64,000 nt of DNA, taken from NCBI GenBank assembly GCA_008632985.1, contig QPGO01000073.1, positions 1-64,000 of the forward strand, in the 5' to 3' direction. This document shows positions 1 to 54,320 of this stretch, in pieces (the stretch's first letter is position 1; each line of letters opens with the position of its first letter). Made by a program: the position numbers and the translations under genes. Under the pieces are notes generated by a model. The model ran no database searches, was not told the DNA's origin, and saw nothing but the letters and a program-made list of their open reading frames with translations. The stretch is from Psammoneis japonica. Its lineage: Eukaryota.

Positions 1-137
1 CATGGCGCGTGATGGCTTGATTCGCACAATCCACAATGCGAACGCACGATCGATTTGAGGCGATCCAAATGCGAACGAATGGGGATTTGGCAAGATTCCC
101 CATTCGCACGATCCCACTTTCTCTGCTCTAAACCAGC

Positions 138-2778
138 TCACAAAGCCACAAATGGCGCAAAATCACAAAGGGCGCAAAATCACAAAGGGCGCACAATGTC
201 GGCAAAGGGTGCAAAATCACAAAGGGCGCAAAATGTCGGCAAAGGGTGCAAAATCACAAAGGTTGCAAAATCACAAAGGGCGCAAAATCACAAAGGGCAC
301 AAAATGTCGGCAAAGGGTGCAAAATCACAAAGGGCACAAAATGACAAATGGCGCCAAATTTAAAAGAGTGCAAAATGGCGGCAAATGGTGCAAAACCACA
401 AACGGCACAAAATCACAAAGGGTGCAAAATCACAAAGGGTGCAAAATGGCGGCAAAGGGTGCAAAATGACAAATGGCGCAAAATGACAAATGGCGCAAAA
501 TCACAAAGGGTGCAAAATGGCGGCAAAGGGTGCAAAATCACAAAGGGCTTGAGATGGCCAAGGGCACAAATTCACAAAGGGTGCAAAGTGGCGGCAAAGG
601 GCGCAAAATCACAAAGGGCGCAAAATGTCGGCAAAGGGTGCAAAATCACAAAGGGTGCAAAATCACAAAGGGCGCAAAATCACAAAGGGCGCAAAATTTT
701 GGCAAAGGGCACAAAATGACAAATGGCGCAAAATCACAAATGGCGCAAAATCACAAAGGGTGCAAAATGGCGGCAAAGGGTGCAAAATCACAAAGGGCTT
801 GAGATGGCCAAGGGCGCAAATTCACAAAGGGTGCAAAATGGCGGCAAAGGGTGCAAAATCACAAAAGGCGCAAAATCACAAAGGGCGCAAAATGTCGGCA
901 AAGGGTGCAAAATCACAAAGGGCACAAAATGACAAATGGCGCCAAATTTAAAAGGGTGCAAGATGGTGGCAAATGGCGCAAAACCACAAACGGCACAAAA
1001 TCACAAAGGGTGCAAAATGGCAGCAAAGGGTGCAAAATGACAAATGGCGCAAAATCACAAATGGCGCAAAATCACAAAGGGTGCAAAGTGGCGGCAAAGG
1101 GTGCAAAATCACAAAGGGCTTGAGATGGCCAAGGGCGCAAATTCACAAAGGGTGCAAAATGGCGGCAAAGGGTGCAAAATCACAAAATGCGCAAAATCAC
1201 AAAGGGCGCAAAATGTCAGCAAAGGGTGCAAAATCACAAAGGGCACAAAATGACAAATGGTGCCAAATTTAAAAGAGTGCAAAATGGTGGCAAATGGCGC
1301 AAAGCCACAAATGGCACAAAATCACAAAGGGTGCAAAATCACAAAGGGTGCAAAATGGCAGCAAAGGGTGCAAAATCACAAAGGGTGCAAAACCACAAAG
1401 GGCGCAAAATTTTGGCAAAGGGTGCAAAATCACAAAGGGCGCAAAATGACAAAGGGCGCGAAATGGCCAAGAGCCAAAAACAACAAAGGGCACAAAATGG
1501 CCAAGGGCTCAAAATCACAAAGGGCACAAAATGGCGGCAAAGGGCGCAAAATCACAAAGGGTGCAAAATGGCAGCTGAGGGTGCAAAATCACAAAGGGCA
1601 CAAAATGGCCAAGGGCTCAATGAATGCCACAAAGGGCGCAAAACGGCCAAGTGCTCAAAATGCTTCAAAGGGCACAAAATGGCCAAGGGTGCAAAATGGC
1701 AGCAAGGGCGCAAAATTGCAAAGGGCACAAAATCACAAAGGGCACGAAATGGCCAAGAGCCAAAAACAACAAAGGGTGCAAAATGGCCAAGGGCTCAAAA
1801 TCACAAAGCTTGCAAAATGGCGGCAAAGGGCGCAAAATCACAAAGGGCGCAAAATCACAAAGGGCACACAATGTCGGCAAAGGGTGCAAAATCACAAAGG
1901 GTGCAAAATCACAAAGGGCGCAAAATGTCGGCAAAGGGTGCAAAATCACAAAGGGTGCAAAATCACAAAGGGTGCAAAATCACAAAGGGCGCAAAATCAC
2001 AAAGGGCGCAAAATTTTGGCAAAGGGTGCAAAATCACAAAGGGTGCAAAATCACAAATGGCTCAAAATCACAAATGGCACAAAATCACAAAGGGTGCAAA
2101 ATGGCGGCAAAGGGTGCAAAATCACAAAGGGCTTGAGATGGCCAAGGGCGCAAATTCACAAAGGGTGCAAATTGGCGGCAAAGGGTGCAAAATCACAAAA
2201 GGCGCAAAATCACAAAGGGCGCAAAATGTCGGCAAAGGGTGCAAAGTCACAAAGGGCACAAAATGACAAATGGCGCCAAATTTAAAAGGGTGCAAAATGG
2301 TGGCAAATGGCGCAAAACCACAAACGGCACAACATCACAAAGGGCGCAAAATCACAAAGGGTGCAAAATGGTGGCAAAGGGTGCAAAATGACAAGTGGCA
2401 CAAAATGACAAATGGCGCAAAATCACAAAGGGTGCAAAATGGCAGCAAAGGGTGCAAAATCACAAAGGGCTTGAGATGGCCAAGGGCGCAAATTCACAAA
2501 GGGTGCAAAGTGGCGGCAAAGGGTGCAAAATCACAAAAGGTGCAAAATCACAAAGGGCACAAAATGTCGGCAAAGGGTGCAAAATCACAAAGGGCACAAA
2601 ATGACAAATGGCGCCAAATTTAAAAGGGTGCAAAATGGTGGCAAATGGCGCAAAACCACAAACGGCACAAAATCACAAAGGGTGCAAAATCACAAAGGGT
2701 GCAAAATCACAAAGGGTGCAAAATGTCGGCAAAGGGTGCAAAATCACAAAGGGTGCAAAGTGGCAGCAAATGGCACAA
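138..2778 (+). repeat. Satellite array of 17-bp (GGGTGCAAAATCACAAA) and 20-bp (GGGTGCAAAATGGCGGCAAA) monomers with a ~320-340-bp higher-order unit
   Basis: Monomers are directly visible. Marker GCCAAATTTAAAA recurs near 352, 941, 1262, 2274 and 2612; GGGCTTGAGATGGCCAAGGG recurs near 545, 795, 1116, 2129 and 2467. Confidence 0.95.
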
Positions 2779-2779
2779 A

Positions 2780-4090
2780 CTCATCATTTGGCTGAGCATG
2801 CAGCCACTGTTCCTGCATCATTTCCTCCACTTGTGTGGCAGCAGAGCCAAGTTTCAAGAGAAAAGTCACGTCTTTGTTGGGCAAAATGTTGGCTCCAAAG
2901 TCAATGAAATGCAGGCTTTGTTCTGCATTGTTGACTGCATCAGCTGCTGTTGCACCCACCTCAATGCACGAGATGTGCTCGCCACTGCCACTGTGCGATT
3001 TCTTAGCCCCCACTGCTTGTGCAGTGTGGATGCAGTTCTCCTTCAAATCCTTTGCGGCTGCCAGCAAATCAGAGGTGGGAAATTGCCCCTGCAATCAAAC
3101 CCCGTTTCCACGTGATTCCAAATGCCCTCTGCCACCCTCCAACCCTCGTCCTCTGACGCAATCTTGGTCAAAACCTTGAACACAGCAGAAAAGTGAAATT
3201 GCACAAAAAATCCCCTGATTTTGTTGTGAGAACCCAGCCTTTTCATTCTTTTGTTGCTGTTGCTGCGCTTGCTTTCAGGTGCTTCAAATGGGGAAAAATC
3301 TGACAGCTGCTTTCAGACAATTCTCTGCCAAATTTTTTTGTTGTTCTGTTGGTTCACCGCCTTTGTCTTCAGGAGGAAAAACAGGTTTGCAGTGTTTTCT
3401 GGCATGGCTGAGGCAAACATGCAGAACCACAATCAGCTCGTCTGTGAAGCAAGGCTTGTCTGGAATGCAGTGATGGCTGACATGGTGAAGACAGATGAAG
3501 ATGTTGACTCCAGCATGAGCAGTCTTGACAATGCCCAATTGAATGTGTGGCAGGTCAGACAGAGGAACCTGCTTTGGAGCCAAGCCCCTGACACAAACTG
3601 GCAAGTCTCCGGGCTCTCCATGGACAGCAAAATGACCTTTGCTGTTGACCTTCATCCCATCTGTGAGGGAACTCAAATGCAACTCTGCATGAACACCTTT
3701 GCAAAGCACCTGCATGAACTTGTCGGTGTCAATGCTTGCACCACAGATGGAATCTGCATCTTTGTGTAAAAAAATGATGTCACCATCTCTCAATTTTCTG
3801 TGTGGAAACAGCTCGGTGACAGTGTCGGTCTCCTTGTCTGCAGTGATTGTCCAACACTCTGGCAGTTTGATTGGACCGCCTTCCAGGCATTTGCCTTCTG
3901 CAGCCATTTGTTCAAATGCAAGCTGCTTTGCCTCCTCATCATTTGAAGCAGAGCAGATCATTTGATGCAAATTTTTCATGGTGGTGACATGCCCACACTT
4001 TTGGATCATGGACATGACAAGATCGCAGTGGGTTGGTTCGTCCATCTTGAAACAGGAGGCAGCGCCAAATCGATGCGGGACCACGTCCAT
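2780..4090 (-). pseudogene. Decayed ORF of unknown function, truncated by the satellite
   Basis: Protein-like frames 3284..4090 and 2744..3094 (SIDTDKF, LSDLPHIQLG, FIDFGANI), Tyr-free and Cys/His-rich. No family assigned. Confidence 0.4.
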
Positions 4091-4835
4091 TTGTCAAATG
4101 GGTGTGTCCAGTTTCTGGTTGGCTGAGTTGACATGAAAAAAATCAGCAGCCAGCAGGTGCCATGAAATCAATGCGATCCCACATCGATTTTGCAAAAGAG
4201 GTTGTGGGCTTGTCTCAGGGGACATTTTCATTGCGTTGAGTTGGAGAGGATGTCAGTCATGCAGCAAAGCAAACCAGCGCGTTGCTCAATGGAAAAGCAA
4301 TGACCTGTGCATTTGTTGATGAACAAGCAAAATCACAAACACACACTCATGTGGGTTGCGTCCACCACACGGGAAAAAGGCAACAAACACGAACAAAACA
4401 TGAACAAAACAATGAAAACAAAACACAAAAAGAAGACACGACACCATGAATGTGCCGAGCTTGTTGCTCCCAGCACAAGATGATCCCTCTGCGGCAACTG
4501 TCGTCACGCAGCAACAGGCACAGCTGTGAAAACTCACTGCTTGGGGGAGGACAGTGTGGGCTGGGTGTTTGTGGATGCCTTGCCTCATGAGTTTCAACGA
4601 AACAAGGAAGATGGGGGCACTGACAACAAAATCTGTGACTGGTGGAAGGAGGAGGATTGCCAAGGCTTTTGTCTGTGGTTCAACAAGAAGTGGCTGGCCA
4701 AGGGCAAAAATCCCAAACTAAAATGGCAAGCATGTGTTGACCCCCAGTTCCTGGCTCCATTGTTGAAGTTCACGACCATGCGCCTCTGCACCCGGTTTTG
4801 AAAATCGTCTGTCTGATGTTGCGTGTCATGCGAGA

Positions 4836-5230
4836 GATGCGTTCCAGCCCTGGGTGGGAGCTCGCAGCACTGACGTGTGACAACAACAATTTTTGTCATC
4901 CGTCGCATGTTTCGCACGTAGATTTCCACACACGACATTTAAAAAAATTGTCCAGACTCGCTGTTTTGCAAAGCCCCAGACGTTTCATGTGACAAATTTG
5001 TAGAAACAACAATGCGCCAGTTGCATTCTTCAATGTCTGAAGAATGTGACTGGCCAAGCAAAAAATGATGCACTTCAATCATGTGCGAGTTTGTGCGTTC
5101 GCAAAATTGCCTCATTTTCTGTTGGCGATCATTGGCGATTTAATTGCCGCACAACTTTGCTGCGGAGCTCGCACGTAGAAGTCTGCGGGCCCAATGTCCC
5201 ACGGATTCCCACCTGCATCTGGAACGCGTC
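4836..5230. mobile_element. MITE, GAC...GTC family, subtype A
   Basis: Ends GATGCGTTCCAG / CTGGAACGCGTC; TSD GAGA at 4832-4835 and 5231-5234; near-identical to 11097-11492. Confidence 0.9.
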
Positions 5231-7149: not shown

Positions 7150-8672
7150 ATGTCGGCAAAGGGTGCAAAATCACAAAGGACACAAAATCACAAAGGGCGC
7201 AAAATCACAAATGGTGCAAAATGGCGGCAAAGGGTGCAAAATCACAAAGGGTGCAAAATCACAAAGGGCACAAAATGGCGGCAAAGGGTGCAAAATCACA
7301 AAGGGCACAAAATGGCCAAGGGTGCAAAATCACAAAAAGTGCAAAACGGCCAAGTGCTCAATGCTTCAAAGGGCACAAAATGGCCAAGGGTGCAAAATGG
7401 CAGCAAAGGGTGCAAAATCACAAAGGGCGCAAAATCACAAAGGGCACAAAATGGCCAAGAGCTAAAAACAACAAAGGGTGCAAAATGGCCAAGGGCTCAA
7501 AATCACAAAGGGTGCAAAATGGCGGCAAAGGGCACAAATCACAAAGGGCGCAAAATCACAAAGGGTGCAAAACCACAAAGGGCGCAAAATGTTGGCAAAG
7601 GGTGCAAAGTCACAAAGGGTGCAAAATCACAAAGGGTGCAAAATCACAAAGGGCGCAAAATTTCCGCAAAGGGTGCAAAATCACAAAGGGCGCAAAGACG
7701 TGCTCCAGTCCCAGGTGATGCACAAAACGACATCAGATTTTGAGCACAGTTCATGCATCTTTTAGTGCGCGCAGCATTTCAGCACAAAATGCTCAGATGG
7801 TTGACTTTCACAGGCTTCTGGAGTGTGAACATTTGAACAGTTTTTTGTGGGGTGCTCAAATCCTCATGGGACATGTGTCACAAACTTCCTCAGCAGACTC
7901 ACTGCTGATTGTGCATCAGCAGATTTACGCTGAGATTTTTTTGCAGGTGGAAAACCTGCCAAGTGACATCGTAGAAAGACACACTTGGGTGACATCCACA
8001 TGACGGCAACATTTTCACCGAAAATCATCCGTTGTGTTGCGAGTCTTTCAGCGCAATGAAAAACACAGACAGCACAATGACGACGACATTGCAACACTCA
8101 CACGTGTCTTGTCAGTGTTGCAAAACATTTGTGTTTGTACAAATCCACACTTTTGGTGGTGAAAGTTCGATCGCAAGTTGGGGACCGCGCAAAAATCGCA
8201 AAAATGTTGTTTTTGTGCACGATTTGGTTCACGTGCGGCTGGAACACGTCCAAAATGACAAATGGCGCAATGTCACAAAGGGTGCAAAATAGCGGCAAAG
8301 GGTGTAAAATCACAAAGGGCACAAAATCACAAAGGGCGCAAAATGTCGGCAAAGGGTGCAAAATCACAAAGGGTGCAAAATGACAAGTGGCGCAAAACCA
8401 CAAATGGCACAAAATTTTGGCAAAGGGTGCAAAATCACAAAGGGCGCAAAATGACAAAGGGCGCAAAATCACAAAGGGCACAAAATGGCGGCAAAGGGTG
8501 CAAAATCACAAAGGGCACAAAATGGCCAAGGGCGCAAGATGGCCAAGTGCTCAAAATCACAAAGGACACAAAGTGGTGGCCAAGGGTGCAAAATCACAAA
8601 GGGCACAAAATGTCCAAAGCTGCAAAATCACAAAGGGTGCAAAATCACAAAGGACACAAAATGACCAAGGGC
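7150..8672 (+). repeat. Second block of the 17/20-bp satellite, same orientation, split by a MITE
   Basis: Same monomers as 138-2778, present at 7150-7696 and 8251-8672. Confidence 0.93.
7697..8250. mobile_element. MITE, GAC...GTC family, subtype K, inserted in the satellite
   Basis: Ends GACGTGCTCCAG / CTGGAACACGTC; TSD CAAA on both sides. Confidence 0.85.
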
Positions 8673-10902: not shown

Positions 10903-11044
10903 GCCCCCTCGAACTGACACCAGCTCCGCTCGGGTCAGATCGACAGACAAATGCCACCTGATGCTGCCCTGTTCCAGGGCAGCAGTTGTGTTTTGGTGGT
11001 GGGAAAAGCCGCACCTGCACGGCAAACCCGTTCGGTTTGTCCCC

Positions 11045-14000
11045 TTTTGGGACTTGCCACAGGATGTGACTCATGATTTCCCGGAGCTTTGGTCCAGACG
11101 CGTTCCAGCCCTGGGTGGGAGCTCGCAGTGCTGACGTGTGACAACAACAATTTTTGTCATCCGTCGCATGTTTCGTGCACAGATTTCCACGTGTGACATT
11201 TAAAAAAAATTGTCCAGACTCGCTGTTTTGCGAAGCCCCAGACGTTTTACATGACAAATTTATGGAAACAACAATGCGCCAGTTACATTCTTCAATGTCT
11301 GAAGAATGTAACTTGCCAAGTAAAAAATGATCTGCTTCAATCATGTGCGAGTTTGTGCGTTCGCAAAATTGCCTCATTTTCTGTTGGCGATCATTGACAT
11401 TTTAATTGCCGCGTGATTTTACTGTGGAGCTCGCATGCAGAAGTCTGCGGGCCCAATGTCACACGGATTCCCACCTGCATCTGGAACGCGTCTCCAGGCA
11501 ACAACTCAGTCAGCACGTCCGCCAGATTCGTGCGCCCATCTTCCCAAGCAATGCGCGCCATTCCAGCGGCTTGTGCCTCACGAGTCCTGTGACAGGCAAT
11601 TGCATTGTGCTTCTTCTTCAAAGTGGACTCTGGTTTAGTTGAGTTCTTGAAGACAGCTTCATTGTTGCAGAAAATGTCAGTGGCCCCATCCATGGGGATT
11701 CCGAGCATCTGAAGCTTGCAGCGCAAGGCTTCAATTTGCTCCACTGCAGTCTTCACAGCCACGAACTCCGACCCAAAAGTGGAGGACTCTACGGCATTCT
11801 GCCGCTTGGAGTGACACATGATGGGTGCTCGTTGGATGAACATCAGGGTCCCAGTGTGGGACCTGCGCATCACACGGCATCCGGCGTGATCAGCATCGAC
11901 AAAGCAAGCAGTGGTCATGCTGTTCCCGCATGCTTCCAGCATGTTTGGCGGCATTGGTTCAGCCGCACCAGGGCAACATTCTTCCCAATCACACTTGGCA
12001 AAATGACTCTCGTCAAAGACAGGCTCAGTGTCATCGAACACTGGTGCAGACTCAGAGTGAGCCTTCAAGTGTGCAAAGATGTGGAGCACCTCGTCCAGGT
12101 GTCCAACTCGTGGTGCTGCCAAGCAGGAGGACATGAGCGAGACAGCGACAAAAATGTCCATGCGCCCCAGCTCAACTGCCCATCGTAGCACACCAACAAG
12201 GCCTTGGTGGCAGTTGGCCGTTCTGGCATTCAACTCAGGTGAGCCATCCAGTTCAGGCCCACATCCCAAGCTCAATGGCATCAACACCTTCGTCAGAAGG
12301 CACCTGTCAGTTTTCTTGAGCTCCAGCTCAACATCAGCTGATGCCCTTTTGACACACAAAGGTCAGAGGACATGGCCCAGCATGTCTTGCCATCCGAGTC
12401 AGACAACTGGTGCTTTCTGATCTGGGTGCCTGAGCGCTCTTCCGGCTCGCAGACACTTCCGTCCTTGAGCGTGTGCCCAGAGCTCATGTAATCCATGACC
12501 TTCTGAGGTTCATGGGAGACGCACAACAAGTCGTCCATGCAAACAAGTGCATGTTCCCAGCACTTGAAGCCATCCGGCTTAACTGCAGCTTGCATCCAAA
12601 CGTCTGGGTCAGCCTTGCAAGACTCGAACCCAGCATCACGCAAAGTTGCTGCCATGTGTTCTCTAAATCTTGCACCTGAAGACTTGAGACCACACAAGGC
12701 TCGGACAATGATTGCCGGCCTTCCTTTGTTGTGCTTCCCAAATTCCAGGCCAGCAGCAGCACAACACTTCTCCTTGGTGTGTGCATTCAAACAGGCATTC
12801 TGAACGTCGGCACTCAGGACCTCCAGGTTGTTGAGGGCTGCCATGGTGAATGCCATCCTAACACTGTCACGTGAAACCATGCTGGAACAAGTTGATTCTT
12901 TAGGTGGATCGGTCTGATGGCCTCCGGCCACGAACCTCACTTTACATTGGTTTGGTGCTCTTGATGTCAAAGATCACATGACAATCAACATGTTTGTGCC
13001 CGACCGGAACAGTGTCGTCATCGCGGAATTCGAGTGCAGGCATGACGTCATGCATTTCCCTCTTGATGGCCTTGAACCAGAAGTCAGTCCCCATTCTGTT
13101 GTCTGTTTCCATGGCTTCCTCAACAGAATTCAGGAGTTCAATTCTGAGCTGATGCGCGCACATTTCCAGCAACGCGACTTGACTTTCTTTAAGATCCTTG
13201 ACCTGTGATGCAAGACGTCTTGGACCAACCAGTTAAAAGCCGGTTCACTGGCTGCCTTGTTCGCCACAGCGTGCTCAGCAACCTTGACTGGACTGGATTC
13301 CTTCAAATCCTTGAGGGGAACCCAGGATGTGGTCCCATCCTTCCATTTGACTTGTGGGTCCCAACCTGCGGTCGTCCTCCCAGGAGCACGCCTGCCAGTC
13401 TCAGTCGTCATGCACCCGTTGTCAGCCTTTACAGCGCGGGCATCACTTTGGTGATCGACTGTTTCCTTCATGATTTGGCAGGCATTGCCTTCAGAGTCTG
13501 TCTGAGCAAATAGATTCTCTGCAATTTTGCCAGCAGCACAGGAGTCAGTGGATCCATCAGGGAATTCCACGTCATGTGTCCTTGAGTCTGGGACAGAGTT
13601 GTTGTTCCTGGTGCCAATGGGAACCCCGTCACTGTCCCGTTTGCATGCAACAACCCTGGCATGGGTCAGCTCACCTCCACATGGTGACATGACTTGAGCT
13701 GTGAGGCACTCGTCAAGCCCCTCCGGGGTGCACTCATCAGCTTCTGGTTTGGAAGCGTCGGGTTCCATGGGTTCAACAGCATTGCCCCATTTGTCCATGA
13801 AGTCATCAGGGAGTTCAGGGAAGTCAGCATTGGTGCCCTGTTCCAGGATGTCAAGTCATTCGATCAAGACCTGATCGACTGACACAAGATCCGCTTTGAT
13901 CGCCGGAGTTTCAAGGTCATCCTCCGGCATGGCCCACACATCTTTCCGAATGATGGGTCTGCCTGATTCGGGCAGGATGACAAATGCCATGTCGTCAGCG

Positions 14001-17000
14001 CAGTTGCAGTTGTTGGCTGCTCTGAGCCAATGGCCAATGCACTTCTTCTCATGTGGGAACTCTGCCACAGGCATGCAACAGTGGACAGGTTGATGCCAAT
14101 CAAAGAGAGAGAGGGATGAGATGTCAGGTGTTGAGCCTGTCACCTCCTCTTCTGGGACTCATCCTCCCACATCCAACATGCCAGTTGCAATCATGCGTCG
14201 GATGTCACATGTCCATTTGGCACTGCAGGACCAAAGTCACCTGTGAGTGCCAGTCCAGCACAGAGTCACGCAGACTCTTTTCTTCAACTCACAAATGGAT
14301 GCCTCGGCTGGGTTCTGCCAGAGGCTGTGTGGGGTGGACACCTCCTGGTGTGTCCTGTGTTCCTTGCAAATGTCCTTGGTCTGGCCTTCTGCCATTTCCG
14401 GCATGCCATCCAACACAAGGACTTGCGGCATGCCAACATCATGTGCAAATGACATGACGGCGTTTGGGTGGTCCTTTTTCTTTTCCAAGGATGGAACCCA
14501 TCATGCCCTCTTCCGTTGGCAAATGCACTTCCTCCCATCTCGCCACGCATCGATTTGACCTTCGAAAACATCTGGTCAGAGTAGAAGCATCCCTTGACAG
14601 CAGGGAACTTAAGCCACGGGGCTTTCTTTTGAACTTTCCGTTTGAATGGTGTGCAGACATTGTGGACCCCTGCCTGGGTTGCCACTCTAAGGGTGTTCTC
14701 AGTGGCCGTCAGACCAACGTCCCACCTCTAGAGAGTGTCTCGGGTGTGACAGTCGATGCACGACTCAAGGCTGACAGCGCATGCTCCCGTTTCTGCTCGG
14801 CACAATCCGGGTGGACATCCAGGTCACACGGGTCGTGCAGCCCGTCTCCCTCAACCACCCACCGCAGCACACCAACAAGGCCTTGACAGCAGTCAGCCGT
14901 TTTGGCATTCAACTCAGGTGAGCCATCCAGTTCAGGCCCACATCCCGAGCTCAAGGGCGTCGACACCTTCGTCGGAAGATGCCTGTCAGTTTTCTTGCAC
15001 TCTAATTCAACGTCAGCCAATGCTCTTTTGACACAAAGGTCAGAGGACACAGCCCAGCGTGTCTCACCATCTGAGTCAGACAGCTGGCACTTTCTGATCT
15101 GGGCGCCTGAGCACTCTTCTGGCTCGCAGACGCTTCCGTCCTTGAGCGTGCACCTGGAGCTCACACAATCCATGACCTTCTGAGGTTCATGGGAGACGCA
15201 CAACCAGTCATCCACGTAGACAAGCACATGTTCCCAGCACTTGAAGCCATCCGGCTTAACCGCAGCCCGCATCCAGACATCCGGGTCAGCCTTGCAAGAC
15301 TCAAACCCAGCGTCATGCAGAGCAGCTGCCACATGTTCCCTAAATCTTGCGCCTGAAGATTTGAGACAATGCAAGGCCCGGACAATGATCACCGGCCTTC
15401 CTTTGTTCTGCTTCCCAAATTCCAGGCCAGCAGTGGTGTGACACTTTTCCTTGGTGTGTGCATTCAAGCAGGCATTCTGAACGTCAGCACTCAGGACCTC
15501 CAGGTCATTCAGAGCTGCCACAGTGAATGCCATCCCAACGCTGTCACGCGACACCACGCTGGAACATGTCGATTCCTCAGGCAGATTGGTTTGATGGCCT
15601 CCAGCCACGAACCTTGCTTTGCGTTGGAGAGTGCTCTTGATGTCAAAGATCACATGACAGTCAATGTGTTTGCACCCGACCGGTGCAGCATCGTCATCGC
15701 GGAATTCAAATGCAGGCATGACGTTGCGCATTTCCTTCTTGATGGCTTTGAACCAGAAGTCGGTCCCCGTTCTGTCATCCATCTCCATGGCTTCCTCAAC
15801 AGATTTTGGGAGTTCAATTCCGAACTTGTGCATGCGTTTCCAGTGACGTGACTTGACTTTCTTCAGGATCCTTGACCTGCGGTGCAAGACGTCTTGGACC
15901 CACCAGTTGAAGGCTGGTTCACTGGCTGCTTTGTTTGCTGCAGCGTGCTCAGCAACCTCGACTGGGTTGGACTCCTTCAAATCCTTGAGAGGAACCCAGG
16001 ATGCAGTCCCATCCTTCCATTCGACCTGCAGGTCCCAGCCTGCTGTTGTCCTCCTGGGAGCACGCCTGCCAGTCTCAGTCATCATGCACCCATCATCGGC
16101 CGTCACAGCACGGCATCACGTCGGTGATTGACTGTTTCCTTCATGATCTGGCAGGCATTCCCTTCAGAGTCGATCTGAGCGAACAGGTTCTCTGCAATTA
16201 CGTTGGCAGCACAGGAATCAGTGGATCCGTCAGGGAATTCCACATCGTGTGCTCTCGAGTCCAGGACAGGGTTGTCGTTCCCAGTGCCAACAGGAACCCC
16301 GTCGCCATCTTGCTTGCGTGCAATGACCCCAGCATGAGTCAGCTCGCCTCCACGTGGCAACATGACTTGAGCTGTGAGACATTCATCTGGCCCTTCCGGG
16401 GTGCACTCATCAGTTTCCGGTTTGGAAGCGTCGGGTTCCACGGGTTCAATGGCATCGTCCCATTCATCCATGAAGTCGTCAGGGAGTTCAGGGAAGTCAG
16501 CACTGGCATCCTTTTCCAGGATGCTGAGCCGTTCGATCAAAGCTTGATCGACCGATGCAAGTTCCGTCTGGATCGCCGGAGTTTTAAGGTCATCCTCCGG
16601 CATGGCCCACACATCCTTCCAAATGATGGGTTTGCCTGATTCGGGCAAAATGATGAATGCCATGTCATCAGTGCAGTTGTCAGCTGCTCTGAGCCAACGG
16701 CCAATGCACTTCTTTTGTGTGGGAACTCCGCCACAGGCATGTGGCAACAAACAGGTTGACACCGGTCAAAGAGAGAGAGAGGGAAGAGATTTCGGGTGTC
16801 GAACCCGTCACCTCCTCTTCTGGGACTTGTCCTCCCATGTCCGATGTGCTGGTCGCAATCATGCAACGGATGTCACACATCCATTTGGTGCTGCAGGACC
16901 AAAGTCGCCTGTGAGCGCCAGTCCGGCGCAGAGTCACACGGACTCTTTTCTTCAACTCACGAATGGATGCCTCGGCCAGGTTCTGCCAGGGGCTGCAAGG

Positions 17001-39000: not shown

Positions 39001-40636
39001 GACTCGCACAACACACTGTGATGCTTTTTCTGGGTTTCCAGACGTCCTGCAACGCGTTGTGCTCCTTGAGCGGTGTGAATTTTTGATCGGACTCGATCGG
39101 GTCAATTTTTCTAAATTGACAGTTTTGTTCGTCAAGCATTTTAGAGTCTTAATTTTTGCTCTTGTTTTTACGTTCCTTTGTCGAGGAACTCGCTTCAATT
39201 GTTTTTGTGAACTGCCTGGTTCATGGTTCAGTTCAATTCCTCTTTCACAGAGGCATTTCTGCTCTCGTCACGTTCGCGTGCGATTGCCATTTAGAGCGTC
39301 GTATTTTTGGGTCTCTTTTAGAGCCACCCTTGCACTCTTTCGCCAACTCATTTTCAGAATGGCTTCAATCCGTGATGTGGGCATTCTTCTTTCAAAGATT
39401 GGACCTTTTGTTCACTTTGGATTGTGGTGGCACCACACAGGAGACCATTTTTGGAACCAAAATTGGAGCCTTTTTGATTGTGGAATCAACTGCACTGTCA
39501 GAGCCCGGGTTGATGTGTTTTTTTTGTCACAGACGTCCTTGCCGACCTCTGGACGACTCAAACCTCAATCAGCTCGTCAAGGGTGTGATCCAGCAGTTCA
39601 ATGTTTTGGACAGTGGGCTGATGCTGCCATCCTTGCGGTGCGAGTGACAGCTGACAAATCAGCGCTCGGTTTCCCGCTAGATTCGACTTAGAATCCATCT
39701 GAGGGTCGTGTGGACTCTCATCGTTGACCTCTTGGGTCTGTCAGAGGCTTTCTTGCTGTTGAGCGGCTCTGGTTTCTTCAGGTCGTCTCGAAAATAATTT
39801 CCCTGATTCTGAAGTGCATTTCCTCGGAGGACATGAGTTGTGAGACGCTTGAGGCACTTTCCAACGATTCCCTCTTGCTCCTTGGACTCGAGGATCATCG
39901 ACTCGGTCTCAAAAAACTCCCCAACAGTCTCTCCTTGCATGGCAGACGCATTTCTCGGATCTGATCGACTCGGAACTTGCACTCTCTGCAACCATGACTT
40001 GGTGTAGATTTTTTGACAATGCAGTGCACTTGAGAGCCCTTGATCCTTGGGTGCTTGGAGCAGACCGCATTGGAGCGAATCCTCTTGTTTGGCAGACGAA
40101 AAACAGCGTTCCATCTTGAGGCACTGCTCGGCTTGAGCTTCTTCCGCTCGGAAATCGATTCCAGCAGAACTGATGCGATTCGTTCCTGTTCACAGAAGAA
40201 TTTGCAAAGGCACATTAGTTGAAATTTTCATTTTCCGTGCTTTTTACCTTCTGTGGTGTGTGTGCACAATGCACCATGCTCAAAGAACGAGTGCAAACGA
40301 AAGCAGAACAGTGCACGAAAAGTGGAAATTATGAGATTAGATTTTGCTCTGTGATTTTTGGTTTCTCCGAATGAGTTCTCAATGGCCTAAAGCTTCTGCA
40401 CTGCTTCTACAGACAAAAGGCCTTTCGGAGAATGCAATTGTGACAACAGATGGTCCGAGTGCGATTGCTTTTGACACACAAGATGTCAGCATCGTCTGTC
40501 GATCGTATTTGCGATTTTCGACTTCCGATCAACTCTGTGTGATCGTTCTGTCCTTCGCACGCATCCACGACTGTGGCACGATTGACATGTGAACAACATG
40601 TGATCATGTGCATGCACACAACAGTCGCACACTGCA
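36001..40636 (-). mobile_element. Ty3/gypsy LTR retrotransposon, degenerate and internally shortened
   Basis: 367-bp LTRs at 36001-36367 and 40270-40636; TSD CTTC; PPT GGAGGCGAG; protease-like DMIMGRELM (~38710), RT remnant LPM...PDIF (~38130) and RNase H TTEKELLSTVETL (~37600) in gypsy order. Confidence 0.9.
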
Positions 40637-43450: not shown

Positions 43451-45650
43451 AGTCAACAGCTTTGTTGGCTGCACCATCACCCACCACCATCTCTTCATCA
43501 CCCTCCTCCATCTCTTCATCAATTGCAGGAATGTCGTTGGTGCCCATCACAGATTCGTTGTGAACAGGAGGCAAGAGATCAACTTGCTCTCCATCCCTGG
43601 GTTGGGTGTGACCAGCTCCTTCATTGTTTGTCATAAAATCAAGAGCTGGTGCTGTGGGCATGTCCATTGCTGGGGACACAGTTCCGGGCATGTGGGCGAA
43701 GCCCAGCACATTGGGTTGCTCCCCATCTGAATGAGCAGTGGATGGACAACATGCCAGCTCAAACCTGGAGCTGGGGGCACTGGCTTCAATCGGAGCACCA
43801 CCATTCAATGACCTGTTGGAGGATGGGACAACATCATGGCGCCACATGAAATTTTTGATGTCTTGGGCAACACTCTTCTACTTGGATTTTGTCAAAGGGG
43901 CATTGGCTGCAAAGTGTTTGCGCCAGTTTGCACATTCTTGAACAGGGTTCTCATCAGCTGGCTGACTGCTTTTGGGAGCCGGTGGCACCTCATCCATGTT
44001 TGGTCAATGGAAACTTGGCCATGATCAATTGCACAAGTGCCTCCTGAACAATGCTGGGCATGCAGTGGATGACAGTCCGTCCCTGATTCTCAGTGCAGAA
44101 TTTGGTGGCAACCTTGTTGTGGCTCTGCTCCTGGTTCTTCACTGCTGTGTGTGCATGACACATGCACGCAGTGGCAGCACAGGGGAGAAAGAGATCAACC
44201 CACAAAGAGGGAACCCTTCATCCAAAGTGGCAGGCTGCATGTGGATGGACTGCATCACAACAATGAGCTGCGGCAAGATTTTGTTCAATCACATTGCCTG
44301 GAGCACTGTCGTTGGAGCCAACTTGGCACTTGATGAATGTGCTGTCCAGCAGGTCAGGAAACACAGCGCTGCCTGCCTTTGGTGGAAGGAGGCAATCAGC
44401 CTGCAAGCAGAGGAAAGAAGCAAAGGCATCTTGTTCTTGGTTCATGAAATTCAGGGCTGAGGGGCCAACCTTTTCCCAAAACTTTTGACGGACATTGGCA
44501 GCGCTGCACTTGTGAATTGACTTGTCCTTGTCTTTTGGCAAGAAGACCTGTTCCCAAACCATCTTTGCAAAGGGACATTCAGAGTGAACACCACCATCCA
44601 GCAGTGACTGCATGTTCATGCTGTTTGCAATCTCTTGTTTTGATGTGAAACCAAGAGAGAACAGCAGTGCTCCACCCACCTGAAGTTGCTTGCCTCATTG
44701 ACAAGGTCCGTCTCCAGAGTTGTCATTTCTCCAGTGTGAAGGGTCTTTTTCTGAACAGGCAGAGAGACTCTGTGGTTTTGTTGGCTTGGGTGACATTTTC
44801 TGACAGTCAGCTGCCCTTGTCTGAGTTTCTTTCAACAGCTTTTCATTTTGGTTTTTGCAAAGTCCGTGCACTCACCAAACAAAATGCAGCCACATTTTGT
44901 GCTCCTCGAGCATCAAATTTTTGGGGTCAATCTGGCAGGTGGCGCACTGCTCAGAGGCCTGAAGCAGTTTGGGAGTTTTGCAAGAAGGGGTTGCATCATG
45001 TTGCCAAAGAAATGCAAGATCTTGTGGTGGAATTGACGTGTTCCAGCCCCAGGTGGGACTCTGTGTGACATTGGGCCCGCAGAATTCTGCGTGCGAGCTC
45101 CGCAGTGTGAGAATTTAATTGATGGACACAATTGTCTTCATCATCAAAACAATGGCCAAGTTTGTGGTGCAATTGTGCCTCTTGCCACTCGACGTTTTTG
45201 CAAATGCACCTGCCCTGCGCGATTCTCAAGACATTGTAGAATCGCGCTGCAACAAAAAATGTCAAAAGTTTTTGGATGGATCGCTCAACAAGTGTGCCGC
45301 AAAATGACACAAAACATCAAAAAATCACGTAGAATTCTACGTGCGCAACATGCGACGAGATTCAAAAAACTGTCGATGTCACAGTTCAGTGGTGCGAGGT
45401 CCCACCCAGACCTGGAACGCGTCAATTGCAGGAGAGTCCACAACTCCATCCATCTCTTGGGAGAGAGAGGAAGGAGCGGCAGCAGCTTCAGTTGCTGGGT
45501 TGTCAGATGACGGATCTTCAGAAACAGAGGGAGGCTGTTGATGCAAGCTGGTCCTCCTTGTGGCTTGTGCAGGAGCAATGGGACCACCCCGTCCTGCACG
45601 GCCAGCACCACAACCATGGCCACGGCCACCTGGTTGGGTCATCTTGTGCC
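43420..45650 (-). pseudogene. Decayed ORF of unknown function, convergent with the dioxygenase-like ORF
   Basis: Successive protein-like frames (RGG-like start, 44218..44679, 43990..44205, acidic tail 43416..43847), interrupted by the MITE at 45035. Confidence 0.35.
45035..45423. mobile_element. MITE, GAC...GTC family, subtype C
   Basis: Ends GACGTGTTCCAG / CTGGAACGCGTC; TSD AATT. Confidence 0.93.
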
Positions 45651-48229
45651 ATTTCTTTGGTGGCGTGGTCAACAAACACACCAAATGGCAACATGTGTGG
45701 ATGGAAGAGTTGGCTGCTGGGAGCAGAGAAAAAAATTGGGGAAGTTTCATTCTTGACAAAAGAGCACACCAATGAGATGCAATGTCAAATGACAAGAAAA
45801 TGTAAAAACAGGTGCAAGGTGACAAGAGCAAAGGCATCACATGAAAGAACAAAATCGACGATATTGTGGCATGCTTGAGTCTTTCAAAACATTCAAAACT
45901 TTGCAAAGTTGGGCAAAACACTGTGTTTTAAAACATGAGTGCAACTCAAACAAGGACAGCAAATGAAGTGGATGGACGGATGTGATCAAAATTCTGGCCA
46001 AAAACAAGGAGTGTGGTCTGTCCTCACACCACAGAGAACAAGATGATGAGAGAGACACTGGCGGGTTGAGGAAGCGGAGTGGCAGAGAGAAAGGAGAAAA
46101 AGTGTGGGACATGAGGCATGAGACAGGGGGGAGCATGAGCTGGGAGCACGCAAGGCCAACACACTTGCACTTTCAAAAAACTTTGCACACAATGCACGAA
46201 GGCATTGTGATGATGCAGCAAGTGGCTGAGCACAGAGGGGATGATGCAGGTGTGGGACACAAGGCATGAGACAGAAAGAGAGTGAGCTGGGGCAAACAAG
46301 GTGCGCAAACTGACACTTTTGACTTGCGCTTGCAAAAAACTGCACAGGCGTTGCATGCACATGTTGTGACCATGCAAAAGGTGGGCCAAGAAGAGTGTGC
46401 GGGGACAAGGGAGGCAAAAAGGTGAGCAGCATCAGTGTGACAAGCCATTTGAACATTGAAGAAAAGCAAAACTCCAAAGATCATTCACACGCTGTCTTCT
46501 CAGGTGTCAGGCAACGTGGTGGGTGAGAACAGGGGAGGGGGCGAAAGTTGGATCACGGCCAAAATGAAGCACTTCTGAATGCAGCCAATGGAGAGATGGC
46601 AATTGCAAGGGAGGGACCAAGGGCAGGACAAAATGGAGTGGTTGCTGTGGAGGACAAGAGGGAACTCACAAGGGGAGAGAGAAAGAATGTGAACAAGGAA
46701 GAGGAAACAAAAAAGCGTCTTCAGGTGGAGAAATGAGATTTTAGAACCAACACGAATCAAGCTCAAATGGAAAAACAGACACAGCATTGTGAAGTCATTG
46801 TCAACACCAATGAGCATTGTTGCTGTGTTCTGAACAGTGTGAGAAAATTGCAGCAAATTGACACTTGACAAGAAAGAGTCATTGAAAAAAAAAGGCTGCA
46901 TTGAGTGTCATTTCCCACTTGGAAGGTTCTTTTAATTGCCAACAAAATCCAAAATCAGCGGTCAGTCAGTCATTGTCAAGATTGTGTTTGTGACAAGGCT
47001 GATTGGTTTTGAGTGCCAAATCCCACTTGGAATGTTGAAACAGTTGTCAAACTGCATTTGTGCAGTGTTGATGAACCCTTGTCAAGAGAGCGGGACTTTC
47101 AAGGAGAAAGATTGGATTCTGAACAAGAGCAACAATGTTTTCCAGACAAAACACATGTCAGATTGAGTGGCCATGCTTGTTCTTTCCTTTGACCCATCTC
47201 ATTTTCAGAGCACAGTGTGTCATGCATTCTTCTTGTGTCAAGTGGTCACAAACAAAGGACAAGGCAAAAACAGAGCCGCACATGAGCAACATTGACATGG
47301 CAGATTTGACGGCAAAGTTTCTTCTTTTCTTGCTCTGCCACAAGGGGCTGCTTTGTGTTGACATGTTGATGCATTCATTGTCGTGCATCGTGTCTCATCA
47401 CGTCGCCGTTGGTCATCATGAGGACAAAAGCACACCCACTCAACTGCAATTGCTGCATGTTGGAACATTCCATTTGTTTTTGTTCCCCTCCCCTGAGCCC
47501 TTTCATGCGTTCCTTCTGGCAAAATTGCCCTCATTTCACCCTCATTTCCCAGGTTTTCCCCAAAGGGCAAGGCAATTCCCCCTCACCCTGGCCATTTTGG
47601 GGAATCCCCAAATGGGCAAAATCAAACTGAGCTGTTGAAATGACCACCACAGAACTGGCCACATGGGACATGCATGAGCCCTGCATGTTGCGGTCCTCCC
47701 GTTGGCAGCAGAGACAACTGATTGTGTCACCTGGCACTTTTGAATGCTCCTGGTGACAAAGTGACCAGTTGAAGGTTGAAGGGCAGCAGGTTTTTCAGTT
47801 TTTTTTTTCTTGATCTTGTTTTTGCACAGCTGAGTCATCAGAGCGCACATTGCAGTGATCCAGACCACCTTTCTCACAGCAATTTTTTTGGTCGGTTGCA
47901 GCACAAAATTCTGTTGTTTCAAACCTTGACAGTTGTGCAGCTGGCAATGACATGTCAACCATGACAGATGAACATTTTTTTTGCTGTGGAAACAGCCCCC
48001 CCTCCCCATGAGGAAAACGTGTTTTGCTGTGAAACAGGGGCGCATTTTCCCCATGAGAACACCCACCCTCCATCCCTGCAAAACCTGCAAATTAAAGTCA
48101 TTTTCATTGCAGCACAAACATTCCATTTTGTTGTTTGCATTTAAATTTGATGGTGCTGATGGAGACCACACCACAGAGTTTGCAGCAGCTGCTGCAGCTC
48201 TTGTTTTCTTGAAGTGCTGCTGCCAGCAG

Positions 48230-48640
48230 CCACCTTGTTCATTGCCAAAAAAGTGCAAAATGCATCGTGAGAGTGCAGTGTGGCTGAGCTGACACCACCA
48301 ACAGGAACGGCAACACAGACTTGCTGGTGCATCCAGCACCGCTGATTCTGGAGCAGGCAAGTTTGTGGCAGGAACTGCTGCTCCATTGTTTGAGGTGCCG
48401 CTGCTCTGCTCCACCTCATTCATTGCCAAAAAGAGCAGAGCATGTTGTGAGAGTGCAACACAGATGAACCAACATGACCCATGGGAATGGCAACATGGGC
48501 TCACCAGTGCATCCAACTCTGCTGGCTCTGGAGCAGGCAAGTTTTTGGCCAAAGTGCTGTTGCTCTGATCCACCTTGTTCATTGCTGAACAGCACAGAGC
48601 ACATTGTGAGAGTGCGACACTTGATGGTGCATCAGTGCAT
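48230..48640. repeat. Degenerate tandem repeat, about 2.5 units of 160-180 bp
   Basis: CACCTTGTTCATTGC...GTGAGAGTGC recurs at ~48231, 48412 and 48571; CTGGAGCAGGCAAGTTT occurs twice. Confidence 0.7.
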
Positions 48641-48779
48641 CTGGCGCCACTGACTCCGGAGCAACACAGATGCCGGTGCATGGTGCAAGACGTTGAGCAC
48701 CCAGCTCCGCCCCTCTGCAACTCAAAGAAAGCACAGAAAAAAAGCATGCAAGCAAGCAAAAAACATCTTGAGTGCCACA

Positions 48780-49545
48780 AAATGCACTTGCTGGAATGGC
48801 TGTGGGAACAGGCACCGCCTGCATGTGTGCCACACTCTGCACAAGGCACTGCGTGAATGGCAAAGTCACATGGCAATGACCAAGTTTGCCCCACACCTCC
48901 CATGCTGCAGACAGTTCATCGATGACATGTTTAGAGCATGGACCAGAAACAGCAGAGAGACTTGGGAAGCCTTTGAAAACAAGCCCAACAACTCAGGCAA
49001 CCTCCAATGGGTTGTGCCTCCCCACTCTCTGCCTCTGCAGTCTTTCTGGATCTGGGTGCGAAAATTGGAAAAGACGGATGCAACGTAAGTGAACATGTCA
49101 AAAACCAACAAAGCGCTTTTTGTGCATGCTTTTTTTGAAGAGTGTCATGTGTGGCAAAGAACTTGTCATGCGTGTGATTCTGAGAGCTGCAGGGACAAGC
49201 ACCGCCTGCAGTCTTTCTGGATCTGGATGCAGAAATTGGAGAGGACGGATGTGTTGTTGGCAAATGCATCAAAAACCAATGAACCTTTTTTTGCACACAC
49301 CTTGTTTGAAGAGTGTCATTTGTGGCAACTCACAATGATTCTGGATGCAAAACTCTGACATGCACAATTGCACCAATGCTGCAGAAAAGCAAGTTTGTGA
49401 CATGTGTGCACACAACAAAACACCAGCAGCTCAGCATTCTGGATGCGGCAGATTCTTGACAGCACACTCGTGATCACAAAACTCAAGCTTTGCCCAAATC
49501 AAAACCCATCTTGACCAACCAGAAGGACAGCAGGTTTCGCCATGT
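48780..49545 (+). mobile_element. Penelope-like retroelement RT fragment with a ~170-bp tandem duplication
   Basis: GMAVGTGTACMCATLC (cf. GxAMGT..ACMYATLY), LPCCRQFIDDMF (cf. YYxRFIDD); VFLDL thumb region duplicated at ~49035 and ~49205. Confidence 0.65.
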
Positions 49546-52500: not shown

Positions 52501-52589
52501 ATCTTGCATTGTTAAAATGCCAACCAGGTTTGAACATCACATTTAAAAGAGCAAGAAAACCAAAATTCAATGTCAAAATGCATGTCAGC

Positions 52590-53802
52590 GACAGTGACAA
52601 CCACCACATTGCAGCCTCTGATTTTCAAGCACAGTGTGTTGTTTGACATGGACATGCACGCTCCACTGAAAATTCCAACTGTGTTGCTCTCCTTTGCAAA
52701 AGTGGTTGTGCAAATTCAGGCAGGCCGTCCTGCCATCCTGACTGCATTGAGAGCCTTCTTGACACAAGCTCAGCACAAATGCTCCCATGTGATTGATGGC
52801 ATGTTGTCCCAAACCTTGATGTTGTTGGCGACAAAGGTCTCCTCAGGCTGAGGATTGTCTCTGGTGGTGAAATGTGCTGCTTGTGCAATCATCTTGGCAC
52901 AGGCATTGGTGCAGTTGGTGGTGTCATCATCTGCTTCTGGTGGCGCCACTGCCTGGTTCTCGTGGATGGCACACACAAGCAGGATGTGGGTTTCCCGCGG
53001 CATGCCTGAGAGTGCTCTTTGAGCAACTCCGTTGTCTTGAGCCAGCCCTTCTTGATGAGAGCAGGTGGGGTCTCTGGACTTTTGCAGGCAGGCTTGGCTG
53101 TCCACAGGTGGTTGAGACCTCTGACGCAGTTCAAAGCAATCTCAGTTGCACACAGCATGTGCGAGATGTGCTCGTGGTGACGAGCGGCAAAAGCTGCAAG
53201 CTTGAGGTTCGTCTCAGCTTGCAGTGATGTGGCCATGCATGGATTGGCATCGCCATCTGCGTTGTCCCCTCCTGGGTGATGTGTGACCTTGCTTGAGGCC
53301 CAGACCTTGTGGTTGTCAAGGTGGCACAATTCCTTGATGGGAGTCCTTGATTCTCTGTTCAGCAACAAGTGCCTCGGCTGCTGGGTTGGTGAAGCCCAGC
53401 CTGGCTGCAGCAGGTGGCTCCCACAGCTGCAAGGTTCATCACCATTGTCAATGGACACAAGTGACAAAAGGACTCCTGTTCTTACAAATTGTGTGGATGT
53501 CACACAAAAAGTGAGTGAAGTGTGCGATCTTTGCACCACTCATTTGCAATTGCATGTGCTCCGTCAGCTCATTTGATCAACCCAAAGACAGCATTCTGTG
53601 TTTTGCTCATGCAAGGTCCAGTGTCTGCGCAAGACAGGGACACAAGCAGCTTCTTGTGTTTGGCACACACAATCATGTGCCAATGCGCACTCGTCATGAA
53701 TGACACATTCATTCTCCCTGATCTGCTTGACCATCACCAGCGAGGCATCACTTGACACAACACACAGGTGACCACACTGCATTTGCATGTTCAGATCGGA
53801 TG

Positions 53803-53854
<52 letters not shown>

Positions 53855-54320
53855 GCTCACTTGGCAATTTCAAATTGCTCAAGCGTTTGCCTCCAAGACA
53901 ATGTGGGAATGGAGAAATGACATCTCAAATCCATCGAGACTGCGCTCTGTGTCTGCGTGAGTGTGCTTGTCAGACACATCACAATGGTCGACACTGCAGT
54001 TGTCAATGAGTTTTAAATTCAGACTGGTTTTGGGAGCAGCGTGCTCATCAAGCACGGACACCGCAGATTTTTTCTGGTCATCCCTGACTTTCATGGAACA
54101 TTCTCCGGGGCGTTGCGCGGCACATTCGCGAGCAAGGGCATCAGAAGGTTCGTCGTTTCTTGTGACGATTGCTCTGACAAAGTGAGTGAAACACCCTGTG
54201 GTCGCGTGCTCCAGGGGTTAGACTAAAAGAAAAGCTGTAACATCGTGACACTATTTCCTAAAAGTGAGAGTTATCCTGAAACTCCAACTTGGCGCACTGT
54301 CGCCAAAGATAAAGCACATA
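52590..54320 (-). mobile_element. 5' fragment of a third copia-like element (LTR, PBS, UTR, gag)
   Basis: Same PBS-like GCTCTGACAAAG at 54171-54182 followed by TG; gag-like frames SLQAETNLKLAAF and FVANNIKVWD...DGRTACLNLHNHF; right boundary uncertain. Confidence 0.6.
53801..53853. repeat. (TG)n microsatellite, about 26 units
   Basis: Directly visible, with one CG interruption. Confidence 0.95.

Follow-up and report, generated by a model that had tools for sequence, protein, structure and literature searches.

What could strip nearly every TpA dinucleotide (TA below) from more than 50 kb of repeated DNA while the adjacent genes keep theirs? We addressed this question in the first 64,000 nucleotides of contig QPGO01000073.1, from assembly GCA_008632985.1 of Psammoneis japonica (hereafter, the window). 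Most of the window is a block of transposon remnants, satellites, and unclassified dispersed repeats (positions 1–54,218) that is depleted of TA, poor in CpG, and enriched in TG and CA, as delineated by TA counts, binned composition, and boundary positions; no strand is assigned to this block or to the other depleted features below, except for the copia elements. An earlier interpretation made from the letters alone (the sequence-only reading) had proposed that a mutator turns TA into TG or CA in these repeats as a genome defense. Our analysis confirmed the direction of the change, and the evidence set out below points to a targeted process acting on chromosomal DNA.

Near-complete loss of TpA from a repeat block

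Base composition predicts about 4,100 TA in the window, but only 520 are present (observed/expected ratio, o/e, 0.126). The first 54,215 bp hold just 207, in line with the sequence-only reading, which had described TA as nearly absent over about 54 kb and had placed the end of the depletion at 54,215. All 27 two-kb bins between positions 1 and 54,000 are depleted (TA o/e 0.01–0.18, 2–25 TA each), compared with genic bins, where TA o/e is 0.56 (54,001–58,000) and 0.61–0.65 (60,001–64,000). In the depleted bins, TG (o/e 1.17–2.16) and CA (o/e 1.42–1.97) are raised, and CpG o/e falls to 0.20–0.85 versus about 1.0 in the genic bins. The right limit of the block is sharp: the final isolated TA lies at 54,014, and dense TA begins at 54,219. 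A second depleted island, missed earlier, lies between two genes at 57,856–59,718 (o/e 0.06 in bin 58,001–60,000); TA positions show a TA-free run of 1,517 bp (57,856–59,371) followed by only 2 TA until 59,718, and word depth places a high-copy core at about 58,426–59,328. The genes between these limits (54,014/54,219, 57,856, and 59,718) are spared, with TA o/e of 0.56–0.65. The repeats had also been described as rich in A and T, which is incorrect, as their G+C content is 0.45–0.55 in two-kb bins.

The depletion had been assigned to repeats of every class. We could verify this for copia elements, represented by three minus-strand open reading frames (ORFs) with RVT_2, the only transposon domain in our Pfam scans, and for a satellite with a 17-nt basic unit, detected by Tandem Repeats Finder at 147–2,759 and also at 7,157–7,696 and 8,251–8,672. 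In this satellite, 20-nt variants interrupt the 17-nt units and build higher-order periods of 71 and 196 nt. The gypsy, Penelope, and miniature inverted-repeat transposable element (MITE) assignments stand unconfirmed: of the 314 stop-to-stop ORFs with at least 90 amino acids, 300 were scanned with Pfam (14 ORFs at 59.4–63.4 kb fell outside that pass) and gave no evidence for them, nor did a less strict Pfam scan of 18 long ORFs or one homology search, that of a 457-amino-acid ORF at 47,545–48,915 on the minus strand. Rfam at gathering thresholds gave 0 matches.

Because TAA and TAG have been erased and only TGA stops remain, the depleted repeats carry long spurious ORFs. The window contains 96 stop-to-stop ORFs of at least 150 amino acids, the longest of 468, a trap for gene callers, which such frames in dead repeats can mislead.

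TA is the ancestral state

The copia elements allowed us to polarize the change. Two copies form an in-situ tandem duplicate of a pol remnant on the minus strand (12,171–17,522), recognized by self-blastn of 12,171–14,853 against 14,850–17,522 (84.5% identity), with RVT_2 matches at 12,296–12,973 and 14,712–16,115. A third minus-strand remnant spans 20,900–25,512, with an RVT_2 match at 21,733–22,791 and tblastn coverage by intact polyproteins up to 25,512; it carries the motifs HVDD, RALCGLK, TCSSVV, and EHAVAN. Aligning 41 intact copia polyproteins by tblastn over all three copies, we assessed 1,125 codons. Among the 60 at which the consensus is tyrosine (Tyr), the window reads Cys at 28, His at 19, Trp at 5, Tyr at 3, Phe at 3, Arg at 1, and Met at 1, so that 52 of the 60 are now Cys, His, or Trp (TGG). 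The codons at these sites (TGT 17, CAT 13, TGC 11, CAC 6, TGG 5, TAC 3) are mostly those expected if TA had become TG or CA, as the sequence-only reading had argued from the same residues. The remaining 19 residue classes were retained at 58–100% over the same codons. A smaller comparison gave the same picture: of the 10,862 homologues of the 468-amino-acid copia ORF, those that are best and intact contain 3–5% Tyr, and at the 12 consensus-Tyr columns defined by 27 intact homologues the ORF reads C at 7, H at 3, W at 1, and Y at 1.

The loss reaches the catalytic site itself, which is YVDD at 15,207–15,218 in one copy, CMDD at 12,530–12,541 in its sister, and HVDD at 22,186–22,197 in the third (all minus strand). 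All the Tyr-loss motifs previously quoted were recovered, including RALCGLK (twice), RALHCLK (once), NACL, TCSSVV, EHAVAN, and IACHR.

Two further tests extended the polarization beyond Tyr. Across codon borders, first-position A>G replacements were preceded by T in 14 of 19 cases, versus 2 of 131 retained codons; likewise, second-position T>C replacements (ATA>ACA, CTA>CCA, TTA>TCA, GTA>GCA) had A as the next base in 10 of 12. The polarized substitutions thus show the TpA excess that a TA-directed mutator predicts. At the DNA level, in 12 alignments to 9 loci, some of which cover one stretch of the window repeatedly, 166 TA of TA-normal relatives could be aligned to the window; 2% were kept, while 58 had become CA and 48 TG, and other dinucleotides were retained at 36–72%. 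Protein and DNA polarization together confirm that TA changed into TG and CA.

These data also bear on whether the elements were TA-poor to begin with, TA being kept low by their own composition or by selection and directional mutation playing no part. We examined 80 copia loci from metagenomes and found a median TA o/e of 0.67 (range 0.14–0.87), CpG o/e of 0.92, and TG+CA o/e of 1.15, with a median of 88% of consensus Tyr retained; intact relatives are therefore not TA-poor. TA o/e is at least 0.48 in 78 of the 80, whereas in the window only 3 of the 60 consensus Tyr survive and two of the three copies no longer have YVDD; satellites and intergenic flanks are depleted too. One locus gives intrinsic poverty some footing, as it combines low TA with 8 of 21 consensus Tyr retained, but we find this explanation scarcely credible.

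That locus (L066, 1–6,400) is an unrelated public metagenome-type contig with a copia element, with TA o/e of 0.14, CpG o/e of 0.27, and TG+CA o/e of 1.54; its best identity to the window is 76% over 164 bp. Among the 150 best protein matches, three have less than 1.5% Tyr. In two of these, the public proteins P0169 and P0202 (0–0.4% Tyr), Cys and His are raised as well. Since L066 and these two proteins share the footprint, the signature is present elsewhere in public data.

Two flows into TG and CA

Measured against the dinucleotide content of the genes, the repeats are short of 1,942 TA and 1,611 CG and have gained 1,967 TG and 1,824 CA (3,791 in sum). The TG and CA excess had been attributed to TA loss; this accounts for part of it, and another part stems from CpG decay. 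CpG o/e is 0.51 in the repeats versus 0.99 at baseline, and Arg codons of the copia elements bear the mark of CpG decay, having changed to Gln (6), Cys (3), His (2), and Trp (1). In the satellite, too, the sole strongly variable column of the 17-nt unit is CG/TG (10 CG, 29 TG, and 1 CA over 40 units of 17 nt); as this strongly variable site is a CpG, the satellite column table is uninformative for polarizing TA. Repressive patterns of 5-methylcytosine (5mC) occur in diatoms, according to the accessible part of one report (MBE 2025, PMC12344493), which fits the CpG decay in the window.

AA, TT, and AT are not depleted in the repeats, and TC and GA are just mildly low, without a matching gain of CC and GG. 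Two flows into TG and CA, TA loss and CpG decay, explain the composition, and general GC-biased processes do not. We rejected GC-biased gene conversion on the ground that AA, TT, and AT are intact. A T>C repair bias of an MBD4/Vsr-type T:G glycosylase, weighed as a tie to methylation, was also dropped, as its target is T before G, not T before A.

Independent hits on both strands of chromosomal DNA

The tandem sister copies record what happened after their duplication. Over about 2,690 aligned positions they differ by 355 transitions and 39 transversions. The commonest class is the double change between CA and TG (70 sites); a further 108 differences are between CG and either TG or CA, 14 are between TA and TG or CA, and 93 are other transitions, while 49 CG and 4 TA are shared. 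If about half of the CpG sites mutated in each copy, we estimate that about 30 of the 70 doubles would arise from CpG, and the rest need TA ancestors. The third copia copy, only about 50% identical to the others, was unusable for a three-way DNA alignment. Along the 70 double sites, TG and CA outcomes form 34 runs versus 35 expected, with no long tracts edited on a single strand. The two sister copies were thus hit independently after in-situ duplication, with random choice of strand, and the both-strand T:A>C:G mutator of the sequence-only reading was borne out by the Cys and His outcomes, the unclustered TG and CA, and the duplicates.

An ADAR-like enzyme could have hyper-edited retrotransposon RNA or complementary DNA (cDNA), with the edited copies inserted afterwards. 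ADAR favors a 5′ U, as stated in the accessible text of a preprint discussed below (bioRxiv 10.64898/2026.01.13.699255), and sense-strand TGN slightly outnumbers CAY at Tyr codons (33 vs 19). However, satellites and unclassified non-coding repeats are as TA-free as the copia elements; both strands are affected, with His as well as Cys outcomes; the in-situ copies diverged independently at shared sites; and the TA-free zone extends into flanking DNA, with outcomes that are not clustered by strand. The sister-copy data, the unclustered outcomes, and the TA-free satellites together exclude RNA or cDNA editing as the main cause, and we judge it very improbable. Non-transcribed satellites, both-strand targeting, and unclustered outcomes point instead to action on chromosomal DNA.

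Sequence context of the surviving TA

Compared with 20,746 TA in the 78 normal relatives, TTAA is enriched 4.7-fold and ATAT depleted 20-fold among the surviving TA (chi-square 266, p = 4e-52; the same holds without 36–41 kb). The ratio of TA to TG+CA ranges 40-fold by flank, from 0.063 for TTAA down to 0.0016 for ATAT. An additive one-flank model fits, with the base before TA (-2) ranked A>G>C>T at about 19:7:3:1 or, equally well, the complementary base after it (+1) ranked T>C>G>A, although these proportions come from small counts. The data thus show a flank preference of ATA > GTA > CTA > TTA.

This preference matters for an explanation that invokes no dedicated system, namely a passive bias of heterochromatin that happens to fall on TpA, arising for example where methylated DNA replicates late and the polymerase is prone to error or mismatch repair is weak. 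The TA loss is co-extensive with the CpG-poor domain, strand choice is random with unclustered hits, and TA and CpG o/e per kb are correlated inside the block (Spearman’s rho 0.59), as if both accumulate with time. We also know of no enzyme for the alternative. Yet about nine-tenths of TA are gone, against 93 other transitions over about 2,690 positions between the sister copies; we therefore estimate that the rate at TA is about two orders of magnitude over background. AA, TT, and AT are untouched, the flank effect is 40-fold, and in the alga Bigelowiella natans a process of the same spectrum was active in only 11 of 15 mutation-accumulation lines, which its authors, in the accessible text, read as regulated (bioRxiv 10.64898/2026.01.13.699255). 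A purely passive origin seems to us quite unlikely.

Support from sequencing reads

We next consider whether the missing TA could be an artefact, with a modified base at TA miscalled as G or C or the assembly otherwise wrong. Three runs (X1–X3) were available, all from one sample and possibly the assembly’s own data, and the platform of neither X1 nor the assembly is on record, which leaves such an error some room. Contigs built from exact 31-letter words of X1 at 47–59x depth nevertheless agree with the TA-poor DNA: matched stretches of 1,057, 479, and 493 bp contain 1, 1, and 2 differences, respectively. Of the 40 best-supported differences between reads and assembly, 19 are between CpG and TpG or CpA, and only 2 would bring back a TA. 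Sister copies differ at homologous sites, carrying TG, CA, or TA, unlike a systematic miscall, and the matching signature of L066 (TA o/e 0.14) and of the two nearly Tyr-free public proteins (0–0.4%) comes from other data. The agreement of X1 excludes a quirk of consensus calling or polishing, though it is not independent confirmation, and an artefact is highly unlikely.

A fourth X1 piece, at single-copy depth, covers 52,550–53,795 with 22 differences in 1,246 bp, mostly between CpG and TpG or CpA; it is either a second haplotype or a close paralogue.

Limits of the depleted zone and its trigger

The edges of the depleted DNA show that TA loss and CpG decay do not end together. CpG density returns to normal near 53,884, and within the island CpG is scarce over about 58,118–59,160, whereas TA is missing up to 54,218 and throughout 57,856–59,718. 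The TA-free zone thus exceeds the CpG-poor zone by about 260–560 bp per side. The flank at 53,863–54,218, of normal CpG density, contains 1 TA in 356 bp versus 1 per 26 bp in genes. Part of the TA-free zone overlaps X1 contigs of single-copy depth (53,863–58,425 and 59,329–63,127), which stop at 58,425 and resume at 59,329, on either side of the island core (58,426–59,328), where word depth reaches about 5,200. TA loss spreading past its targets into flanks is one reading of these edges; the flanks could also be very old repeat ends.

Repeat-induced triggering through homology, as the sequence-only reading had envisaged, is not clearly supported. Every affected stretch is, or once was, repetitive, but much of the depleted DNA has a word depth that is today single-copy or close to it, and there too TA is almost entirely gone. 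The loss also reaches past the high-copy cores, the TA-free zone exceeds the CpG-poor zone, and the main target in B. natans is single-copy.

A proposed TpA-directed editor

Weighing this evidence, we think it fairly probable that a targeted, chromatin-directed TpA editor, most likely adenine-deaminating, shaped these repeats. A context-specific process would turn 5′-TA-3′ into TG or CA by A:T>G:C transitions, acting on the chromosomal DNA one site at a time and on either strand. It would run alongside the decay of methylated CpG, both feeding TG and CA, and silent, cytosine-methylated chromatin, rather than present-day sequence similarity, would direct it. A TadA/ADAT2-like enzyme, or another deaminase that acts on DNA, would deaminate the adenine after T to inosine, which is read as G; adenine deamination is our leading guess for the chemistry. 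The effect would be permanent inactivation of mobile DNA, with YVDD becoming CMDD or HVDD and TAA and TAG stops erased, and it may serve as a defense.

The chemistry could instead start from the thymine. A TET/JBP-type dioxygenase may oxidize the TpA thymine in silenced repeats to 5-hydroxymethyluracil (5hmU) or 5-formyluracil, with mispairing or faulty repair then fixing T>C. On general chemical grounds, oxidized thymine may give T>C at such rates. The palindromic TpA target fits this route equally well, and TA loss coincides with CpG decay here. In dinoflagellates, members of the stramenopile–alveolate–Rhizaria (SAR) group, a TET/JBP enzyme makes 5hmU mostly on repeats, where it overlaps 5mC and helps silence transposons, with thymine preferentially replaced in TA and TC, according to the accessible portions of a study in PNAS (2024, PMC11572971). 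This preference for TC is at odds with the window, where TC and GA are only mildly low and CC and GG show no gain, and no demonstration of 5hmU in diatoms was found in the literature examined. Thymine oxidation is unlikely in our view, though worth keeping in sight.

Several points count against a chromatin-directed, adenine-deaminating editor. The observed flank order does not seem to match the preferences of ADAR, which favors a 3′ G, or the tRNA-anticodon contexts of ADAT. TpA being palindromic, attack on A and attack on T are indistinguishable from sequence. The chromatin trigger draws on the co-location with CpG decay and on the wider TA-free zone, both at one locus, and the read data come from the single sample described above. 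The 2 TA-type differences among 40 fit the small number of TA left and prove no ongoing activity. Finally, the precedent is one preprint without peer review.

A broader proposal, which we put forward tentatively and which may well prove wrong, is that such TpA editing of DNA bases, by an adenine deaminase or a thymine oxidase at silent 5mC chromatin, is a defense common to diatoms and chlorarachniophytes, and probably old and widespread in SAR. It would permanently disable silenced transposons, satellites, and viral inserts, site by site in the order ATA>GTA>CTA>TTA, reach a few hundred bases past its targets, and be a main shaper of repeat composition in these algae.

A saturated footprint in diatom transposons and satellites suggests that the process is not one alga’s quirk, and it may be widespread among ecologically dominant phytoplankton. 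The footprint offers testable handles: its flank preference can be compared with mutation-accumulation data, it co-locates with cytosine methylation, and it occurs in a group of organisms open to genome editing. A natural enzyme that performs A:T→G:C changes on double-stranded chromosomal DNA would interest the base-editing field.

Other features of the window

Within the block, a tandem repeat with 249- and 364-nt periods lies at 29,880–32,184 (self-comparison and Tandem Repeats Finder; TA o/e 0.02–0.03 in bins). The least-mutated part is 36,001–40,000, with TA o/e of 0.12–0.18 and CpG o/e of 0.82–0.84; it has a strong AT skew (-0.24) and is possibly a more recent insertion in which the mutation process is still incomplete. 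A very high-copy dispersed repeat occupies 44,668–46,001, with a summed word depth in X1 of about 34,000–71,000 versus about 56 for single-copy DNA. Inside 43.5–47.5 kb, no repeats of note turned up. The small run X3, from the same sample, contains only short records (40–154 letters), all on 45,170–45,423, the window’s highest-copy repeat. Although the run carries no label, a library of small-RNA type directed at repeats is one possibility.

Three genes follow the block. The first (54,463–55,698, plus strand), of normal TA and CpG, encodes a flavin monooxygenase (FMO) of the FMO/Baeyer-Villiger type (Pfam FMO-like, E 6.7e-15). It is intron-less, and its best homologues are 58–60% identical, the named ones being bacterial (Longimicrobiales, Acidobacteriota, ‘CzcO’), with no closer eukaryotic match among those listed; this diatom gene may have come from bacteria. 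The second (56,518–57,771, minus strand), also of normal TA and CpG, encodes an ARM-repeat protein (Pfam ARM_ARMC5, ARM_LRRK2). The third (59,948–62,690, plus strand) is a spliced PPK2/thymidylate-kinase-like gene, with contigs of run X2 bridging GT..AG gaps of 77–111 nt. Its exon at 61,055–62,347 is 73% identical to a protein of Attheya sp. and 52–53% to proteins of Cyclotella and Thalassiosira. All of its named matches are diatoms, and the host is therefore a diatom; we take the window to be nuclear DNA of a diatom. The spliced X2 contigs cover the genes and next to none of the TA-poor DNA, a blank that is not evidence of silence.

Comparison with known systems

Fungal repeat-induced point mutation (RIP) resembles the process inferred here in leaving permanent, dinucleotide-specific transitions on both strands of repeated or mobile DNA, ruining coding capacity, and at times leaking into adjacent DNA. 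RIP changes C:G to T:A, mostly CpA to TpA, and thereby creates TA and stops, whereas here TA is lost rather than gained and TAA and TAG stops are erased, an opposition that the sequence-only reading had rightly noted. RIP also needs duplicated sequence and a cytosine methyltransferase of the RID/Dim-2 type, and acts at a premeiotic stage. An A:T>G:C mutagenic defense at TpA would be its mirror image.

The decay of methylated CpG acts on the same DNA and yields the same products, and of the excess TG and CA, roughly 3,800 in all, about 1,600 can be ascribed to it, but it cannot remove TA or turn Tyr into Cys or His, and its zone is narrower than the TA-free zone. Deaminase editing by ADAR and APOBEC disables mobile elements in animals. 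ADAR, however, works on double-stranded RNA and leaves strand-clustered A>G changes, and APOBEC produces C>T and G>A. Instead of clustered changes on the transcribed strand of elements with an RNA stage, the window shows unclustered changes on both strands, in satellites and in-situ duplicates alike. The dinoflagellate 5hmU system is similar in being a base modification aimed at transposons in an alga of the SAR group, overlapping 5mC and preferring the T of TA; as described in the accessible text, it differs in being an epigenetic silencing mark rather than a mutator, and in also preferring TC (PMC11572971).

The closest parallel is the nuclear TpA hypermutation of B. natans, reported in mutation-accumulation lines (Mettrop et al., bioRxiv 10.64898/2026.01.13.699255), which makes the earlier statement that no system of this kind had been characterized out of date. 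According to the accessible text of that preprint, 231 of 302 nuclear mutations fell in giant-virus and virophage inserts, and 230 of these 231 were A>G or T>C, all at TpA, at a rate of about 6e-7 per site per generation (elevated rates of about 1e-7 to 1e-6). The genome contains 124 clusters of 1-kb windows poor in TpA and rich in CpA and TpG, reverse transcriptase and DDE domains are enriched among TpA-poor coding sequences, and an ADAT2-like adenine deaminase is the candidate enzyme, as yet unproven (bioRxiv 10.64898/2026.01.13.699255).

By analogy, the process in our window appears to be of the same kind. Both consist solely of A>G and T>C at TpA, with TpG or CpA as the product according to strand, and leave a footprint of scarce TpA and plentiful CpA+TpG in local blocks of foreign or silent DNA. 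They differ in host, a chlorarachniophyte (Rhizaria) there and a diatom (Stramenopiles) here, and in targets, as the headline targets in B. natans are a single-copy giant-virus insert and a virophage, compared with transposons and satellites in the window. TpA is about halved in B. natans (Rho 0.45) versus near saturation here (o/e about 0.06), and a rate was measured directly there, whereas in the window only the footprint is seen. In their accessible form, the preprint’s Results and Discussion describe neither a preference for bases flanking TpA nor a connection with CpG decay nor a spread into neighboring DNA, and its text does not mention diatoms, stramenopiles, or satellites (bioRxiv 10.64898/2026.01.13.699255). 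Searches of Creative-Commons PMC and bioRxiv, a scope that leaves out subscription papers, including any genome paper for the host, turned up no account of diatom repeats losing TpA. A TpA-targeted footprint has otherwise been reported once, in this 2026 preprint on a distantly related alga; new here are the diatom host, the transposon and satellite targets, the near-saturation, the flank preference, and a TA-free zone wider than the CpG-poor one.

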